NCBI GenBank assembly: GCA_016700375.1
Contig: CP065016.1
Span: forward strand, 840,001 to 872,000
DNA: 32,000 nucleotides
Source of the DNA: Candidatus Saccharimonadota bacterium
Lineage (GTDB): Bacteria > Patescibacteriota > Saccharimonadia > Saccharimonadales > UBA4665
Reading direction: 5' to 3'
The notes under the pieces were generated by a model. That model saw nothing but the letters and a program-made list of their open reading frames with translations, had not been told where the DNA came from and made no database searches. Of the stretch, positions 20,589-31,578 are shown piece after piece. The position numbers and the translations under genes were made by a program. The first letter of the stretch is position 1, and the number at the start of each line of letters is the position of its first letter.

Positions 20589-20615
20589 AAAAAATCCTTT
20601 CCGCGCAGGAAAGGA
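20589..20615 (-). terminator. Riboswitch expression platform: intrinsic terminator that also sequesters the SD, abutting the metK ATG
   Basis: The minus strand reads UCCUUUCC-UGCGC-GGAAAGGA-UUUUUU-AUG. The 3' arm contains AAGGA. An upstream GGGAAAG can pair alternatively with CUUUCC as an antiterminator. Confidence 0.65.
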
Positions 20616-20745
20616 GTGGTCATGACCATATCTTTCCCACCATTACGTTAGTAACAGAGGCTAGATGAAGCACCGTTCTACTGAAAATAGATGGTTGCCG
20701 ACGGGTCACCGCGCTAGAACGCTCGCCGTACTCTCGATATCTCAC
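20589..20745 (-). promoter_or_regulatory. SAM-I (S-box) riboswitch in the metK leader
   Basis: The minus strand reads GAGAUAUCGAGAGUACGGCGAGCGUUCUAGCGCGGUGACCCGUCGGCAACC...ACGGUGCUUCAUCUAGC...AAAGAUAU. This matches the S-box core (UAUCnAGAG, GG.GAG, GGCAACC, GGUGCU.A.UC.AGC, and a P1 3' strand complementary to AUAUC). A terminator follows. Confidence 0.8.
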
Positions 20746-24543: not shown

Positions 24544-24975
24544 ATGTTCGAATATCATGCGCGTAGTCTTGCGTCTCATATACCAAACCGAAGAGGCCTA
24601 TTACAATTTATCTATTTCAACCTCGGGGGTGCTGCATTCTTCGTAAGTGGCTACCTAGTATTTTCTCTTCTCTATGGTCTATTGCACTGGCATTGGCTTG
24701 TAGCGAAGGGGATTGCCGACCTTATAGGCTGGTCGCTGAATTATCTTATCCAGCACTATCTGGCGTTTAGCGATGTGGCGCGTCAGCAGGGGCACAAAAA
24801 AGTGCTGAAAAAGTTTGTGCCGTTCAGTCTCTTCAATATCCCTATAGACTACGCCATTGTTGGCGGCCTGAAGTGGCTTGGTGTTACCCCGTTCCTTGGC
24901 CTCTGGATTTCCAGCGTTTTCTTCACCATCTGGAAATGGCTCTGGTACAAACACTGGGTGTTTAAAGTGAGGTAG
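24544..24975 (+). CDS. GtrA-family membrane protein
   Basis: 143 aa with 4 TM segments, and motifs FIYFNLGGAAFFVSGY...LNYLIQHYLAFS...WKWLWYKHWVF. The ATG directly follows the upstream TAG. Confidence 0.75.
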   Translation: MFEYHARSLASHIPNRRGLLQFIYFNLGGAAFFVSGYLVFSLLYGLLHWHWLVAKGIADLIGWSLNYLIQHYLAFSDVARQQGHKKVLKKFVPFSLFNIPIDYAIVGGLKWLGVTPFLGLWISSVFFTIWKWLWYKHWVFKVR

Positions 24976-26323
24976 CCGGAGCATTCTTTTTACGAGAGCG
25001 CCATGTCTGGATGGCTACAGCAATGGCAAGGGAAATGGTGAGCAGGTAGAAGGCGATAGCTATAGTGGTTTGTGGTTCTGGGGTTGCTACTTTTCCCGAG
25101 GTGTCCGTCAGACTATTCGCTATGAATAACCCAACTATACTTATGCATCCTAGGACGGCACTCGAGAATCGTGCAAGCCAATGCTTTTGCAGAGCAAGTG
25201 CAAACGCACCAACCAAGAGGAAAAAGACACTCGAAACCCATGGTGTTGTTACGTCTGCGAGCTCATAGAGCTGTACGAGCTTACCTGAATCTTTCAGGAT
25301 GTATATAGGGAAACTCGTCGATACAACCACTCCAAACAATGTAAATGCGTATACATACTCGAGACGGAGGAGTTTTCCTAGGAAATCAGAGGTATATGTC
25401 AGCCATGTTTTTCGGTCTGTCAACCGTAGCTCCTCTTTGTAGAACATCACCTTTGCGGTGAAATAACCGCTGCCAATAAATCCAAGCAAACCTGCCAGAT
25501 AAACCGGCGCATTGAATTGCCGCAAAACCAAGAAGTAGACAGCGACACCGAGAAATGCACCAATAATCCAATATTCGGGCATACGAAAGAGTGTTTGTTC
25601 GAGCTCTTTATCGTCCTTCACGCCGATTAAATCGTTGCCCGCAACGCTCATAAGGTCGGTGTAGGACTGTTTTGTTAGCGGTGTTAATGCGTTTTTTGCA
25701 TAAACTCTAGGGAGTTCAAGCGCTGAGCCATCTGCTTTTTCTGCTCGGAGCAGCGTGGCATCTTTCAGTAAATAGAGAGGTGTATGGTATGCGTTCTTAA
25801 GGATGTGTACCTCATAATCCTCCTCGCTTCCGCTCTTAAGAAATTTCGGATAGTTTCCCTGAATAGAGAGCAGAGTAGGCTGATTCGCCGCTTTTTCGCG
25901 GAAAACTAACTCAGCTGCACATAAGCGTTCACCACGCACGGTGTGGAGCACAAACACTTGCCCATTCGCGAGGCACGACAGTGTTGCAAAAATTGCTCTT
26001 GCAGCCGAATTATTTGTTTTACCAATAGTACTATACGAAAACTGCATCTGGCCCCAGCCCTCAATATCAAGTAAAAATCCCAGGTCCGCAAGCGTAAGCG
26101 CGTATCGTAGCGCCTTATCGCTTTCTTTTTTTCCGAGTTCTAGGGTAGCAAACGGCTCCCCGCTACCAGTTTCGTTATCAACGCTCCCCAATCTCGCAAA
26201 CGCATCTTGCTGGATAATTAAGTTGTCTTTTTCTAGAGGGTAGATATCTGTTTTTGTTATAAGCCGCTCTAGTTCCTTAAAAATATGTATAGGCGAAAGA
26301 GTATCTGTTTCCTTCACGTGCAT
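24962..26323 (-). CDS. Hypothetical membrane protein: ~245-aa cytoplasmic N-terminal domain plus ~6 C-terminal TM helices
   Basis: 453-aa ORF with no motif I recognise. The hydrophobic segments start at WIIGAFLGVAVYFLVL. An alternative start is GTG 26317, 6 nt after AGGAG. Confidence 0.6.
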   Translation of the reverse strand: MHVKETDTLSPIHIFKELERLITKTDIYPLEKDNLIIQQDAFARLGSVDNETGSGEPFATLELGKKESDKALRYALTLADLGFLLDIEGWGQMQFSYSTIGKTNNSAARAIFATLSCLANGQVFVLHTVRGERLCAAELVFREKAANQPTLLSIQGNYPKFLKSGSEEDYEVHILKNAYHTPLYLLKDATLLRAEKADGSALELPRVYAKNALTPLTKQSYTDLMSVAGNDLIGVKDDKELEQTLFRMPEYWIIGAFLGVAVYFLVLRQFNAPVYLAGLLGFIGSGYFTAKVMFYKEELRLTDRKTWLTYTSDFLGKLLRLEYVYAFTLFGVVVSTSFPIYILKDSGKLVQLYELADVTTPWVSSVFFLLVGAFALALQKHWLARFSSAVLGCISIVGLFIANSLTDTSGKVATPEPQTTIAIAFYLLTISLAIAVAIQTWRSRKKNAPATSL

Positions 26324-26383
26324 CTCCTCTGGCGTAGTGTCTCACACCATAGTCTTATCGTAAAGTGTGACATAATAGTATAC

Positions 26384-26899
26384 ATGAACGAAAAGCAAAC
26401 AAATGAGGTGAAGAACATATCTGATGCAAGTCAATCCCAGGTGAAACCAATGCGGCCGACCAAAAAACAAAAGGAACTACTTGCGTTCATAGAGCAGTTT
26501 ATTGTCGAGCATGGCTATAGCCCCAGCTACCGCGAAATCATGAGTGGACTGAACTATACATCTGTTGCGACAGTAGCGCTCCATGTTGGAAACCTCATCA
26601 AGCGCGGTCATCTTATAAAGCGCGACCATAGCGCTCGCTCACTCGAAGTCGTTAACCCCAGCGGGCAAGCCCCAGCGCCATTGTTAACCAACGAAATCAA
26701 AGAGGCAGAGGAAAAGTGGCTCGTTAGTAAGGTTGAAAAACTGTTCGTCGATGCCGAGTCTCAGGCCGTACCAACACCCCAGCAGGTCGAAGACATTGCC
26801 GTCGTTCTCGTGTCGCTCAAAGTGCTCGGGCTTGAGGGCGTTGCCCAGAGCTTTGCCGCTCGCCTGACGACCCTGCGCACCAGCCTCCCGAAACTGTAG
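26384..26899 (+). CDS. LexA-type winged-helix DNA-binding protein lacking the S24 peptidase domain
   Basis: PTKKQKELLAFIEQFIVEHGYSPSYREIMSGLNYTSVATVALHVGNLIKRGHLIKR matches the LexA N-terminal domain. The C-terminal ~75 aa are helical and have no Ala-Gly/Ser/Lys autocleavage motifs. ATG 26384 is preferred; the track start 26285 overlaps the divergent gene. Confidence 0.7.
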   Translation: MNEKQTNEVKNISDASQSQVKPMRPTKKQKELLAFIEQFIVEHGYSPSYREIMSGLNYTSVATVALHVGNLIKRGHLIKRDHSARSLEVVNPSGQAPAPLLTNEIKEAEEKWLVSKVEKLFVDAESQAVPTPQQVEDIAVVLVSLKVLGLEGVAQSFAARLTTLRTSLPKL

Positions 26900-26966
26900 C
26901 ATCACGTAAAAATTACTATATCTAGTGCCTGGGCTTGCGTGCTAGACTCTAGATAGTTTCTCAAAA

Positions 26967-27215
26967 TTTACAAAATAAAATCGGAATGAGGTGAAAATCC
27001 TCAGCTGTGCCGCAACTGTAATCCATGTGCTCTCTTTGTTGAAAAGGAAAAAGAGCAGCCCGAGCAAAAATCACATTTTTTGCCCGGCGCGTCGAGAAAA
27101 AACGTAGTTTTGTCTCGAAACTGGTAAGCCAGACACGATTGTAAAGTCTTCCGAGCAGAAGCGTACACGCGTATTCGCGTATAGCTGCTTACTCTCGGAA
27201 ACGAGGGTATTTTTT
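26967..27215 (+). promoter_or_regulatory. Cobalamin riboswitch-like leader with a terminator/SD-sequestering platform
   Basis: GGAAUGAGGUGAAAAUCCUCAGCUGUGCCGCAACUGUAA (26983-27021) matches the conserved cobalamin core (GGGAA, GGUGnnAAUCC hairpin, CCGCnACUGU). A B12-box-like AGCCAGACAC sits at 27127-27136. TTTACAA (26967-73) is complementary to TTGTAAA (27139-45). A hairpin TACTCTCG-GAAA-CGAGGGTA (27190-27209) plus T6 abuts ATG 27216. Confidence 0.65.
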
Positions 27216-28763
27216 ATGCACGAGCATGCACCGACATTAGACCGTGAAGCACCTGAGGAGGTGCTCTCTGCGGTGGAGGCAGAGTTACTAGGGGACTTGT
27301 CTCTCAGGCTCGCCCTATTAGAGCACGAAGCTGCGGCAAAAGCTGATGAGCTTGCACGGCGTGTTGGAAATGTTGCGATTAATTGCGAGCGAGAAGCCAA
27401 AGAGTCGACGCTGCATGAAGCAATACAGGAGCGAAATACTGAATTGATAGCTGCAAATGCACGTAGCGACGTCATTGAACGCACGTTTAAGGCTGGTCAT
27501 GTCATGGAAGTGCGGCAAACCATAAACGAACGTGGCGATATTGAGCAGCACGGTCAGAGCAGCGAACAGACACAGGCAAACACATTGAAGTACGCAAACG
27601 CCAACCCCATTCTGAAACCGCGCACTCAAGCCGAAACGCGCAACGCATACTATATAGATGCGCTTCGGAGAGAGGGTTTGCTAGAGGAGAATTATGCTGT
27701 AGTCGTTTCGCTTTGCCCAAACGCTGACGACAGTACGCTGGACGAACTTGGCTTCTTTGCGTTCTCCAAATCACTGGTAATACAGGCTACAACAACCAAA
27801 GAGGGTGGCGTTACGACCGAATCTGCTTTTGTTGCGGGAGTGAAACAGGACGGGGAATCGCGCTATGACCATGAGGTAGCCGTTGCCTTCGGGAAAGAGT
27901 TTGGCGAAGATTGGCGTGGGCTCGATGATGCCGGTATCATCAGCCGCGTATTGCTTGTACCAAAAGAGTACATGCCAGATGGCGTCATCGACCTCGTAAA
28001 ACTGTGGGATGACCTTGCTGGCGGCACATTTTTTGGCATGGAAAGGCCACGGCAAGATTATGTACAGTACCTCGAGCAGTGCAAAGAGCGTGAACGGCAG
28101 TTTGAGCCGACGGTACAGAAAATAGTTAATGAACTACTATTGCTCGCACCTGTCATTCGCAGTCCGCTTGAGGCAGTGAAACGTTTGCATGAAGTGTCCG
28201 AACGACACACGCTCGAGAGGGCGCTTGTGGACTACACTATAGATAGCAGAGTTTTTGGCACCAAAGCGGCCCTCGACCTCGAGGAGGCTCGATTCCACTA
28301 TGCAAGAGGCAACATGCATCAGGTCCAGATGGCAATGACCAAGGCCCGCACCAATGCAGCTTCAGGCTCATGTCCGAGCGGTGTGTCTGGCTTGAGGGGG
28401 AAGGGTTCTTTGTATAATGAAGACGGTAGCTTGAAGACCCCTGAACAGATTGCCAAAGAAGAAGCCGAAAGTATCAAAGATGAAGATGAGTATGGCTCTT
28501 TGAACTTTGTCTGCAAGCACGGGCACCCCAATACCCGTCCACGCCACAAGCTTATACCGACCTGTAAGCATTGTGGCGTCAGTGTTGGTTGCGGTCCGAA
28601 GGTGGACGCGAAAAAGAAGCCGAACAAACATATTCCGAAAAGCACCGGTTCCTTGATTGCGCCCGTGTTCTGGGAAGTATCGAGTCTTGTTAACAAGGTT
28701 TCAAATAAATCCCCAAATACGTCTCAGCCGAAAAAACGCCAAGATTACGTTCTTGCGAGCTAA
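27216..28763 (+). CDS. Hypothetical cytoplasmic protein with acidic helical N-terminus and C-terminal zinc-ribbon-like CxH...CxxC
   Basis: 515-aa ORF with no TM segment or signal peptide. The C-terminus reads FVCKHGHPNTRPRHKLIPTCKHCGVSVGCG followed by a basic tail. I could not assign a family by eye. Confidence 0.65.
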   Translation: MHEHAPTLDREAPEEVLSAVEAELLGDLSLRLALLEHEAAAKADELARRVGNVAINCEREAKESTLHEAIQERNTELIAANARSDVIERTFKAGHVMEVRQTINERGDIEQHGQSSEQTQANTLKYANANPILKPRTQAETRNAYYIDALRREGLLEENYAVVVSLCPNADDSTLDELGFFAFSKSLVIQATTTKEGGVTTESAFVAGVKQDGESRYDHEVAVAFGKEFGEDWRGLDDAGIISRVLLVPKEYMPDGVIDLVKLWDDLAGGTFFGMERPRQDYVQYLEQCKERERQFEPTVQKIVNELLLLAPVIRSPLEAVKRLHEVSERHTLERALVDYTIDSRVFGTKAALDLEEARFHYARGNMHQVQMAMTKARTNAASGSCPSGVSGLRGKGSLYNEDGSLKTPEQIAKEEAESIKDEDEYGSLNFVCKHGHPNTRPRHKLIPTCKHCGVSVGCGPKVDAKKKPNKHIPKSTGSLIAPVFWEVSSLVNKVSNKSPNTSQPKKRQDYVLAS

Positions 28764-28791
28764 CGCCAAACTATCGCTATAATGAATGTGT

Positions 28792-28956
28792 ATGAATGAC
28801 ATTGACCCATACGCAGAAATGGTGAAGGAACGAGCTCCGGAGCTGTTTTGCGAAGTCTGCGGGCACTATCCGCTCGAGCCAGTACACGGTCACTTTGCCT
28901 GCCCAGCGTGCAAGAGCATTACCAAATGCTGTGAAGGGATGCCCCTTGATGCGTGA
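28792..28956 (+). CDS. Small (54-aa) zinc-ribbon protein, not in the ORF track
   Basis: Own translation: MNDIDPYAEMVKERAPELFCEVCGHYPLEPVHGHFACPACKSITKCCEGMPLDA. It has CxxC...CxxC spacing. TATAAT at 28778-28783 lies 8 nt upstream. Its stop overlaps the ATG 28949 of the nadD frame by 8 nt. Confidence 0.45.
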   Translation: MNDIDPYAEMVKERAPELFCEVCGHYPLEPVHGHFACPACKSITKCCEGMPLDA

Positions 28957-29611
28957 AAGCTCCGACCTTTCACGGTTACAGCAGGGAGATGAGGTGAAAC
29001 CAACCTCTGTAAAACTGCAATCCCAGGTGAAACGACGTATCGGCATATACTCTGGCACCTTTGACCCAGTGCACGCGGGGCATATTGCCTTTGCGCTGCA
29101 AGCGGCACAGAAGGCGCAGCTTGACACTGTTATTTTTGCGCCGGAACGGAACCCGCACCGCAAACAGCACACCACCCATTTTGCACACCGGGTAGCGATG
29201 ATTCGGAGGGCTATTCGTCCGTACCGTCAATTGGGCATCATAGAGCTTGAAGACAAGACATTTTCTGTGCTTCGCACGCTTCCGCGCCTGAAGCAGGCGT
29301 ACCCGGGCGCCAAACTGGTTTTTTTGTGCGGTTCTGACGTACTGGGTCATATGGTAGATTGGCCACACATAGAGAGTTTATTGTTTGACGTAGATTTGTG
29401 TGTTGGGAGGCGACACAACGAGACCGAACAACAAGTTACTCACGCGGTTGAAGGGCTTCCCGTTATGCCGTCGGCCGTGACTATTTTTGAAAGCCATGCC
29501 GCCAGCGTCAGTTCGAGCCAGGTACGAGCTGCCATTCGTGAAAGGCGCGGCGTACGAGGGCTTCTGTTGAGCGTGAAGGTGTATGCGCAGCGCGAATGGC
29601 TGTATATATAG
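28949..29611 (+). CDS. nadD: Nicotinate-nucleotide adenylyltransferase
   Basis: IGIYSGTFDPVHAGHIAFA ((H/T)xGH motif) and a C-terminal SVSSSQVRAAI (ISSTxxR-like). The start is uncertain: ATG 28949, or GTG 28994 preceded by GGGAG. Confidence 0.8.
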   Translation: MRESSDLSRLQQGDEVKPTSVKLQSQVKRRIGIYSGTFDPVHAGHIAFALQAAQKAQLDTVIFAPERNPHRKQHTTHFAHRVAMIRRAIRPYRQLGIIELEDKTFSVLRTLPRLKQAYPGAKLVFLCGSDVLGHMVDWPHIESLLFDVDLCVGRRHNETEQQVTHAVEGLPVMPSAVTIFESHAASVSSSQVRAAIRERRGVRGLLLSVKVYAQREWLYI

Positions 29612-30688: not shown

Positions 30689-31578
30689 CTCTGTCAACGA
30701 ACATGGAACAAGCAAACCTGTAGGTAGGTGAATGGTGAGTCAAAAAGATGCGGCTGGTTATGCCGAGCCATCCATTCATTAAGAACCGTTTGAAGATTCT
30801 TGGTAGGTACGCAGCCATAGAGTTTTCGTAAGTACCGCTTTATCTCGCTCCAGATGCGTTCAATCTGGTTTGTTCCAGCAAACTGTCCAGTGCTATGGTT
30901 CCAGCTCTCGTGGGTATAGCCAAGCAGCGGCAAATCCTGGTAGGCATACCACTTGTCAGTGGCGACATTTGTTCCTGACTTTACGGTATCCAGTACGAAT
31001 TGTTCTAGGACATCCTGTCCTCTGGAATTCGTTATCCTGAGTGCAATACGGTCAGTATCCGGTTCAATTGCTCCAGTCACAATTGTCTGCGGCTGTGTGC
31101 TCTTCAGCTTCCCGAAGTAGCTCTCGTCTATCTGCACGAGGCCGCATAGAATAGTGTCTGATTCATCCGGCAGATGACACCTGAACCGTCCGTACCACCG
31201 CTCAACTGTTGGGTAGCTGACATGCGCTACCAAACATGCGGTGTCGGGGCTCTTTTGTACTGCCAGCACCAGAGCAGGACGAAGAGCTGTCTGGGGCTCA
31301 GCTTCATGCCGTACAACCAAGAACCTTGATGAGCTGTTGGCCGATACTTCCGACGGCACTGCGAGCATCATGCATAGCGACGCACATACTGAAGCTTTAG
31401 TGTTTGTGTGCATCGTGAACAACGGAGTGTGTCACCAAATGCTAGTTTGTTAAGGAACACCCAGCACTTCTTATTACTAGGAATGTCTGTTAATTTAGTC
31501 ATGGAACAACCTTTCTATTCTTGTTAGCTTTGACACTACAAGTTTAGCGGTTGTTCCGTTTTAGTTTAATGAGCCCAA
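30689..31578 (-). mobile_element. IS1595-family insertion sequence (~890 bp), decayed
   Basis: It is flanked by an 8-bp direct repeat AAGTCAGG (30681-30688 and 31579-31586). Imperfect terminal inverted repeats are present: CTCTGTCAACGAACATGGAAC at 30689-30709 versus 31553-31573, 15/21 identical. It contains an IS1595-type transposase. The exact right tip is uncertain by ~5 nt. Confidence 0.6.
30694..31502 (-). pseudogene. IS1595-family (ISXO2-like) DDE transposase, disrupted by an in-frame TGA and a frameshift
   Basis: Frame A from ATG 31502 reads MTKLTDIPSNKKCWVFLNKLAFGDTLRCSRCTQTLKLQYVRRYA*CSQCRRKYRPT...LFVLLWCWQYK (Zn-ribbon, TGA at 31368-31370). The homology then continues in the -1 frame from ~31255: SPDTACLVAHVSYPTVERWY...VQIDESYFGK...TDKWYAYQDL...TNQIERIWSEIKRYL. 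Confidence 0.7.

Follow-up and report, generated by a model that had tools for sequence, protein, structure and literature searches.

Does a cobalamin riboswitch control a protein of no recognised family in a Saccharibacteria genome and, if it does, what part would that protein play in the vitamin B12 economy of the cell? The question is raised by a 32,000-nucleotide (nt) stretch of DNA from Candidatus Saccharimonadota bacterium (contig CP065016.1, positions 840,001 to 872,000 of the forward strand; the window, in whose numbering coordinates are given unless another locus is named), where a coding sequence for a 515-amino-acid (aa) protein (27216-28763, + strand) follows a leader at 26937-27215. 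We conclude that this leader is, judged by its sequence, a functional cobalamin riboswitch. The protein may be a cytoplasmic partner of corrinoid acquisition or handling, induced by B12 starvation and engaged in capture, retention or processing, perhaps through an invariant cysteine; we give this reading a probability of roughly 0.45.

Few clues to the function of an unknown gene are as reliable as a riboswitch, since a gene located behind a cobalamin switch almost certainly belongs to the B12 economy. Saccharibacteria are ultra-small epibionts that are unable to make cofactors and are supplied with them by hosts or neighbours. Here the clue leads to a superfamily that comprises hundreds of clusters at 50% identity and has neither annotation nor a known fold. 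Literature searches returned no description of the protein family, nor of cobalamin riboswitches in Saccharibacteria or the candidate phyla radiation (CPR).

A scan of the 32 kb with Rfam gave just two matches, the cobalamin leader and an S-adenosylmethionine (SAM) riboswitch upstream of metK. The cobalamin leader matches the Cobalamin model RF00174 at 26937-27155 on the + strand, with 35.6 bits against a gathering score of 31.5 (E = 1.1e-5), in an alignment that spans the whole model (positions 1-189). The leader contains the following elements.

26967-26973 and 27139-27145, + strand: flanking strings TTTACAA and TTGTAAA
26980-26983, + strand: 5' strand of helix P3 (AUCG), with its partner CGAU at 27136-27139
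26983-27021, + strand: aptamer core GGAATGAGGTGAAAATCCTCAGCTGTGCCGCAACTGTAA
26987-27003, + strand: P4 hairpin UGAGG-UGAAAAU-CCUCA, the conserved GGUGnnAAUCC element
27004-27021, + strand: GCUGUGCCGCAACUGUAA, comprising P5 with its loop L5 and the 5' strand of P6 (CUG, 27016-27018)
27022-27124, + strand: P6 extension, a three-hairpin peripheral domain of 103 nt that is found in a subset of leaders
27127-27136, + strand: B12 box AGCCAGACAC, aligned to the Rfam consensus AGCCAGGAGAC

The GGAA motif, the GGUGnnAAUCC hairpin, GCCGCAACUGU and the B12 box are all found within 26983-27021 and 27127-27136 and are kept in 19 of 19 leaders; the 3' strand of P6 (CAG, 27130-27132) lies inside the B12 box. 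A preliminary description of the locus, made by eye, had named the core and the B12 box, both of which are present where it placed them, and the covariance-model search that it proposed returned the score over threshold given above. It had also drawn a bracket of TTTACAA and TTGTAAA around the B12 box. The two strings are present, but as a pair they occur only in the window and its close relatives L001 and L017 and are not kept elsewhere; conservation is seen instead in the closing helix ATCG/CGAT (26980-26983 with 27136-27139), for which GCUG/CAGC is the covarying alternative.

The leader travels with the gene. A peptide pattern, blind to the RNA, retrieved 18 genome loci with homologues, all of them from metagenome-assembled genomes of Saccharibacteria or Saccharimonadales, and exact identity to sister-family proteins retrieved nine more contigs. 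The aptamer core lies upstream of the homologue unit in 18 of 18 genome loci and nine of nine contigs, which gives a positive answer to the earlier question whether orthologues, too, sit behind cobalamin leaders. Rfam matches over threshold were obtained in eight of the 18 loci, exclusively from the cobalamin clan, on the coding strand and just 5' of the gene; ten of 16 further loci likewise gave cobalamin-clan matches over threshold. All 18 leaders share a common order: P3, GGAA, P4, UGUGCCGCAAC, an insert of 0-173 nt, the B12 box, the 3' strand of P3 and the hairpin AAAGUCUYY-CGAGCA-RRAGC. When the window's leader is included, UGUGCCGCAAC is invariant and the B12 box reads AG(C/U)C(A/C)GA(C/U)AC in 19 of 19. 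Orthologous leaders with an insert of 0-2 nt match RF01689 (AdoCbl-II) at 36.7-51.1 bits.

Covariation was tested on the 19 aligned cores with a structure that we derived ourselves. Over P3, P4, P6 and P13, the last a hairpin 3' of the aptamer, 98.5% of cells are paired and compensatory changes occur in 10 of 18 pairs; the covariation score is 0.506, compared with 0.174 for shuffles, and was reached by none of 500 shuffles, while sliding the partners lowered pairing to 25-47%. The four pairs of P3 are 100% paired, three with compensatory changes (AUCG/CGAU versus GCUG/CAGC and ACCG/CGGU), and the five pairs of P4 are 98.9% paired, four with compensatory changes. The middle pair of P6 is U-A in eight sequences and G-C in 11, switching together with the variant of the B12 box, and two of the four pairs of P13 change in a compensatory manner (CUUC/GAAG, CUCC/GGAG, CUCU/AGAG). 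The P6 extension is homologous in L003, L114 and L136, where nine of 31 predicted pairs carry compensatory changes.

These results bear on the suspicion that the match of the leader is accidental or decayed and that the gene is expressed constitutively. The Rfam score is just 4 bits over threshold and the outer P1/P2 of the Rfam alignment contains several non-canonical pairs, as such a suspicion would have it. Against this stand a core kept in all 18 and all nine independently found loci, compensatory covariation, 18 more Rfam matches over threshold and a conserved switching helix, described below, which refute the suspicion at the sequence level and leave it scarcely credible. The score, the covarying helices and the presence of the leader with every independently found homologue thus uphold the earlier identification as a cobalamin riboswitch.

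Between the aptamer and the start codon lies an expression platform with these parts.

27148-27161, + strand: regulatory hairpin CUUC-CGAGCA-GAAG, P13, with a nearly invariant loop
27167-27180, + strand: variable middle hairpin ACGCG-UAUU-CGCGU, replaced by a hairpin of different sequence in most leaders
27190-27209, + strand: terminal hairpin TACTCTCG-GAAA-CGAGGGTA (RNA UACUCUCG-GAAA-CGAGGGUA) of 8 bp, followed by six U (to 27215) and the ATG at 27216
27146-27164 with 27184-27202, + strand: alternative anti-terminator or anti-sequestor helix, which occupies most of the 5' arm and the loop of the terminal hairpin

The Shine-Dalgarno (SD) sequence GAGGG (27203-27207) lies within the 3' arm of the terminal hairpin, which a pattern scan classed as terminator-like, and the layout of CCCUC...GAGGG, U5-7 and AUG is kept in 17 of 19 leaders. 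The preliminary description had equated the platform with this hairpin, its SD-like GAGGG, T6 and ATG; that much is confirmed, but the platform also includes P13 and the variable hairpin. The minimum-free-energy fold of the window platform is the alternative one, at -23.7 kcal/mol, in which GAGGG-U6-AUG is single-stranded; with P13 enforced, the terminal hairpin forms, at -20.2 kcal/mol. For 18 leaders, the duplex energy between P13 and the 5' arm and loop of the terminal hairpin has a mean z of -2.5 relative to shuffled P13 segments (p < 0.05 in 13 of 18), and the alternative pairing is the minimum-free-energy platform fold in 11 of 18. In L010, the P13 3' arm AGGAG is itself the SD sequence, with the AUG 7 nt downstream. 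A P13 that carries the ribosome-binding site is the classical arrangement in compact cobalamin riboswitches.

By analogy with those riboswitches, we infer that the hairpin at 27148-27161 is their P13 and, from the sequence, that the leader is a standard OFF switch. When no corrinoid is present, the P13 strand would pair with the 5' arm and loop of the last hairpin, leaving GAGGG and the U-tract free, and the 515-aa gene would be transcribed and translated. When corrinoid is bound, P13 would be kept as a hairpin, presumably docked on the aptamer via L5 as in class-II switches. This ligand-dependent docking would pay the energy difference between the two folds and allow the terminal hairpin, terminator-like and with the SD sequence buried, to form. 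Both the identity of the ligand and the docking of L5 with the P13 loop (L13) are steps that we infer.

The protein under this control is known from an identical database entry, a hypothetical protein recorded under Candidatus Saccharibacteria bacterium, and none of its 66 homologues has a Pfam domain. The family profile is matched by 447 clusters at 50% identity, 328 of them below 1e-30. Neither Pfam nor NCBIfam gave a match to the window protein even at E <= 1, and the profiles of known B12 regulons (BtuB/BtuF/BtuCD, ECF-CbrT, DUF4430, Cob/Cbi, MetE, Nrd and the B12-binding PF02310) are among the Pfam and NCBIfam models without a match in it. A Pfam scan of 65 family members yielded weak zinc-ribbon matches only, PHROGs and PADLOC contained no match to the 515-aa protein, and a PDB sequence profile search returned only ribosomal zinc ribbons at E about 1. 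The AlphaFold model (mean predicted local distance difference test, pLDDT, 84.8; predicted template modelling score 0.77) is confident; it begins with a helical hairpin, continues with an alpha/beta core and a helical region, and has a small C-terminal beta ribbon before a disordered tail (residues 461-515). When it was compared with the PDB by Foldseek, nothing was found below E = 0.07 and template modelling scores did not exceed 0.17. No signal peptide and no membrane segment was detected in the protein.

The preliminary description fares well here too. Its account of the N-terminus, central domain, ribbon and tail agrees with the model, its guess of a host-dependent lineage agrees with the name under which the identical protein is recorded, and its statement that the protein belongs to no recognised family stands after the searches of Pfam, NCBIfam, PHROGs, PADLOC, the PDB profiles and the PDB structures, all without a significant match. 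The protein is outside every described family or solved fold that could be compared, and the locus is that of a B12 regulon with an undescribed cargo superfamily.

Among 65 family sequences, the invariant positions include E88, R89, K92, Q111, N122, R136, N143, Q190, C289, R292, C386, C433 and C453. Two conserved sites have these coordinates.

28371-28373, + strand: codon of Cys386, invariant in the 65 sequences, in the Gly/Ser-rich loop SGSCPSG (SSSCPS in the family)
28512-28583, + strand: C-terminal zinc ribbon C433-x2-H436 ... C453-x2-C456, in which C433 and C453 are invariant

Ribosomal L37Ae/eL43 and the zinc-ribbon models of Pfam match the ribbon weakly. Two observations concern the termini. 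In the window's subfamily, the basic disordered tail (residues 461-515, 28596-28760) ends in ...LALAA, ...VALAT or ...VLAS, similar to an ssrA degradation tag. An N-terminal MA(V/A)AAE is common to subfamilies that are otherwise alike only at the profile level (e.g. L001 2555, L021, L057, L114 and L128); possible explanations are a signal, a degron or a constraint at the RNA level. The window protein starts with MHEHAP and is without it.

What else does this aptamer control? A scan of metagenome contigs with the aptamer-core pattern gave 120 loci, with cargos in four groups: the window's own family; many divergent families without a Pfam match, soluble and of 350-600 aa, with a Gly/Ser loop that holds one cysteine and a C-terminal zinc ribbon; B12-uptake genes, namely alpha/alpha-toroid plus DUF4430 proteins, DUF6580 membrane proteins and BtuF-type (Peripla_BP_2) binding proteins with ATP-binding cassette (ABC) genes; and a few others. 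DUF4430 is the C-terminal domain of transcobalamins (PMC4350170). The cysteine loop of the sister families reads ACGS, GCGG, GCPP or other equivalents, and the zinc ribbon is present in at least 27 complete first open reading frames (ORFs) behind the aptamer. Profile alignment by hhalign of the window family with the divergent families gave a probability of 95.8% (E = 7.7e-9 over 330 columns), and with a 59-sequence sister alignment 97.0% (E = 1.2e-10 over 247 columns). On this comparison, homology between the divergent families and the window's family extends far past the ribbon, and together these families are a large, fast-diverging Saccharibacteria superfamily of which the window family is one branch. 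The structural model of a sister protein (pLDDT 85.4) likewise has no match in the PDB by Foldseek, apart from weak, non-significant ones to PAS/LOV, IclR/LuxR ligand-binding and Bet v 1 folds.

At this Saccharibacteria locus, a fixed chromosomal slot, the cobalamin riboswitch seems to have the superfamily as its main cargo. The gene order Wzy, GtrA, LexA-like, riboswitch, X, NadD, DsbA, CNNM, Asp/Asn-tRNA synthetase is kept in Saccharibacteria, with the LexA-like gene 5' of the riboswitch in most loci, and X is the window family or one of at least four sister families. The cargo of the one slot diverges from 60% identity down to profile-only similarity. In L036, and probably in L107, X consists of DUF4430 and DUF6580 alone. 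In L136, L145 and L147, X is DUF4430, DUF6580 and a sister protein in one operon; these sister proteins are 50-58% identical, and the genes are separated by gaps of 10-19 nt, with a TAATG stop/start overlap in L136. The riboswitch-controlled DUF4430 and DUF6580 pairs are located at 583-2400 of L036, 1880-4400 of L136, 2941-5308 of L145 and 2857-5341 of L147.

These relationships guide the reading of function. The shared regulator, the shared slot, the coupled operon with putative import genes and the fast divergence make a partnership with uptake the best-supported reading, and since the slot can also hold DUF4430 and DUF6580, with a superfamily member translationally coupled behind them in one subclade, the protein may be the intracellular partner of corrinoid import. 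When B12 is scarce, its role would be to trap, retain or chemically process scavenged corrinoid, with the invariant cysteine as a possible means. Tentatively, it may represent a new class of intracellular proteins for the binding or processing of corrinoids, with an unseen fold, a loop cysteine and a zinc ribbon, that would complete a minimal B12-scavenging route. This route would consist of a DUF4430 binder, a DUF6580 permease and a cytoplasmic trap, in Saccharibacteria and possibly in other CPR bacteria; its riboswitch-controlled context makes DUF6580 a candidate corrinoid permease. The earlier proposal that the gene is a candidate for a new B12-linked function is strengthened, in that DUF4430-DUF6580 genes occur in the same riboswitch-controlled slot as its superfamily and, in one subclade, in the same operon. 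The accompanying remark that the three classical classes of cobalamin-riboswitch targets have no place for the gene is only partly right, because the context now points towards the uptake and handling class.

Several observations weigh against the best-supported reading of protein and RNA. To our knowledge, no function has been demonstrated for DUF6580. Neither a motif nor a fold for corrinoid binding was detected in the 515-aa protein, and the weak matches of the sister model to ligand-binding PAS/GAF-like domains are not significant. No uptake gene lies in the 32 kb window or within 6 kb on either side in L001-L018. In most loci, that of the window among them, the gene is alone behind its riboswitch, so that the evidence from operons is drawn from a sister subclade and not from the window's family. 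At the RNA level, L5 (UGCCG) and L13 (CGAGCA) are invariant and about three Watson-Crick pairs can be drawn between them; because both loops are invariant, covariation is blind to an L5-L13 kissing loop. Finally, the many invariant polar residues and cysteines suit an enzyme as well as a binder. The main rival is accordingly a B12-independent replacement for a B12-dependent enzyme, which after the logic of metE and nrd would be made only when B12 is scarce and would catalyse the same reaction without the cofactor, by means of the invariant cysteines and the zinc site; some 20 invariant polar or Cys residues, C289 and C386 among them, would suit it. The OFF-switch architecture, the monocistronic position directly behind the riboswitch in most loci and the lack of an uptake gene near the window family are all compatible with such an enzyme. 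Beside envelope-polysaccharide genes, the window encodes a cluster of metK, S-adenosylhomocysteine (AdoHcy) hydrolase and a PfkB-family kinase, so that the methyl cycle is present, and no methionine synthase was found within the 32 kb. However, the extreme divergence of the cargo at one slot is unusual for a core metabolic enzyme, one subclade is translationally coupled to putative import genes, and there is no likeness to any enzyme fold in the PDB. No B12-dependent counterpart was identified in these genomes, although no search for their B12-dependent enzymes could be made. We regard a replacement enzyme as a serious rival, but a less probable one.

A protein without any corrinoid contact has also to be considered, either a B12-starvation response factor of the zinc-ribbon nucleic-acid-binding or regulatory kind, or a fast-evolving host-interaction factor for which B12 is a proxy of host or nutrient status. 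The weak resemblance of the ribbon to ribosomal and transcription-factor ribbons, the fast evolution of the sequence, the N-terminal MAVAAE conserved across subfamilies and a second conserved upstream box that adjoins the LexA-type gene would agree with a role of this kind, which is nevertheless distinctly improbable given that the assignable cargos of the same aptamer type are mostly B12-uptake genes, that superfamily members stand in an operon with DUF4430-DUF6580 and that no DNA- or RNA-binding domain besides the ribbon was detected. Our preferred reading is still that of a partner of corrinoid acquisition or handling induced by B12 starvation.

Towards the 5' end of the leader, two further elements may govern its initiation.

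26908-26927, + strand: conserved box AAAAATTACTATATCTAGTG with the imperfect palindrome CTAYATRTAG, a possible operator or -35 region
26940-26948, + strand: extended -10-like TGCTAGACT (TGnTAnnnT), the probable promoter of the leader

The box, AAAAAT(T/A)ACTATAT(C/G)TAG(C/T)G, occurs once in the window and is found at the same distance in 17 of 19 family leaders as well as in L107 and L136. In 17 of 19 leaders it sits 13 nt 5' of the extended -10-like TGnTAnnnT, regardless of which gene lies upstream. With the adjoining LexA-type gene, its sequence suggests that there may be a second, protein-based layer of control on the same unit. The variants TGCTACACT, TGCTATACT and TGGTAGACT occupy the position of the -10-like element in orthologous leaders. 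The -10-like hexamer was also considered as a pairing partner of the downstream AAGUCU and was rejected, since it varies without a compensating change there.

The SAM riboswitch upstream of metK (RF00162, 20625-20743, - strand) scored 45.2 bits against a threshold of 44.4. The metK leader (20589-20743, - strand) ends in UCCUUUCC-UGCG-CGGAAAGGA, six U and AUG, with the SD sequence in the 3' arm of the terminator; this is the same stem-U6-ATG design as at the cobalamin leader, a parallel that the preliminary description had drawn correctly. A TTAACAA motif lies 5' of both the B12 and the SAM aptamer and may mark the region of transcript start.

In the window, the riboswitch and its gene are flanked by two genes on the same strand.

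26285-26899, + strand: LexA-type winged-helix gene, the upstream neighbour, with PF01726 only and no detectable peptidase S24 domain
28895-29611, + strand: NadD-like nucleotidyltransferase, the downstream neighbour, with PF01467 (TIGR00482 at 110.6 bits against a cut-off of 112.45)

A pattern scan found no terminator-like site between the 515-aa gene and NadD (28763-28895), and in L139 (5310-5323) and L140 (5313-5329) the last 14-17 nt of the sister gene are shared with the NadD-like gene; NadD may therefore be co-transcribed in part with the riboswitch-controlled gene. Beyond NadD, the window contains DsbA and then an IS1595-family transposase (30694-31422, - strand), which lies between DsbA and the usual next genes (CNNM/CBS and Asp/Asn-tRNA synthetase) and breaks the local synteny. 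A 453-aa ORF without a Pfam hit (24962-26323, - strand), between GtrA and the LexA-like gene, is found in the window only, in a comparison with L005-L018. Conversely, a secreted-looking protein of about 230 aa lies 5' of the riboswitch in 13 of 18 related loci and is absent from the window. In metagenome contigs of other lineages (L058 and L093), the aptamer core precedes a protein with a twin-arginine translocation signal and two 4Fe-4S motifs, and then a small membrane protein; the layout resembles that of a reductive dehalogenase, which no specific Pfam hit confirmed.

The role of the 515-aa protein, once worked out, will bear on how such organisms acquire B12 or do without it. The locus points to an undescribed step in B12 handling by tiny, host-dependent bacteria, and the outcome may be a corrinoid-handling protein of a new type or else a B12-independent enzyme not known before. 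The DUF6580 and DUF4430 genes that share the slot would gain a function as well.

How does the locus compare with known systems? A functional analogy, and nothing closer, is offered by BtuM, a membrane protein that ligates cobalamin through a cysteine and carries out decyanation, and by the trafficking chaperones MMACHC and MMADHC: they share with the 515-aa protein an invariant cysteine on a flexible loop and expression tied to B12 acquisition, but no homology was detected, and the CblC and CblD folds were not among the Foldseek matches, provided that they are in the PDB copy that was searched. The B12-independent isozymes under cobalamin riboswitches, metE and nrdAB/nrdDG, encode proteins that are similarly soluble and cytoplasmic, stand first behind an OFF riboswitch and have conserved cysteines and a zinc site. 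In contrast, the 515-aa protein lacks sequence or fold similarity to MetE, core-MetE and ribonucleotide reductases, and its family is far more divergent between related genomes.

The closest parallel for the RNA is in the class-II cobalamin riboswitches (AdoCbl-variant or env8-type, RF01689, clan CL00101), which have the same compact P3-P4-P5-P6 core with B12 box, the same OFF logic, and a P13 that follows the aptamer and bears or governs the ribosome-binding site, as in L010, where the SD sequence is in the P13 3' arm. Orthologous leaders match RF01689, whereas the window copy, with its 103-nt three-hairpin P6 extension, is assigned to RF00174. L5-L13 complementarity is minimal here, and in most leaders the SD sequence lies in an additional, separate hairpin of terminator-like form, so that P13 would act by anti-terminator pairing and not by hiding the SD sequence itself. 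The RNA is a cobalamin riboswitch of the known compact-core, P13-platform type, varied by the anti-terminator pairing proposed for P13 and by a P6 extension specific to the lineage. With regard to cargo, the 515-aa protein is unlike any known binder or transporter component of the B12-riboswitch uptake operons (transcobalamin-like or DUF4430 binders with energy-coupling factor-type or BtuFCD importers), and its gene is the only one directly behind the window riboswitch, NadD perhaps being co-transcribed. Yet the same aptamer variant precedes such uptake genes, and in Saccharibacteria they fill the very slot of the 515-aa gene.

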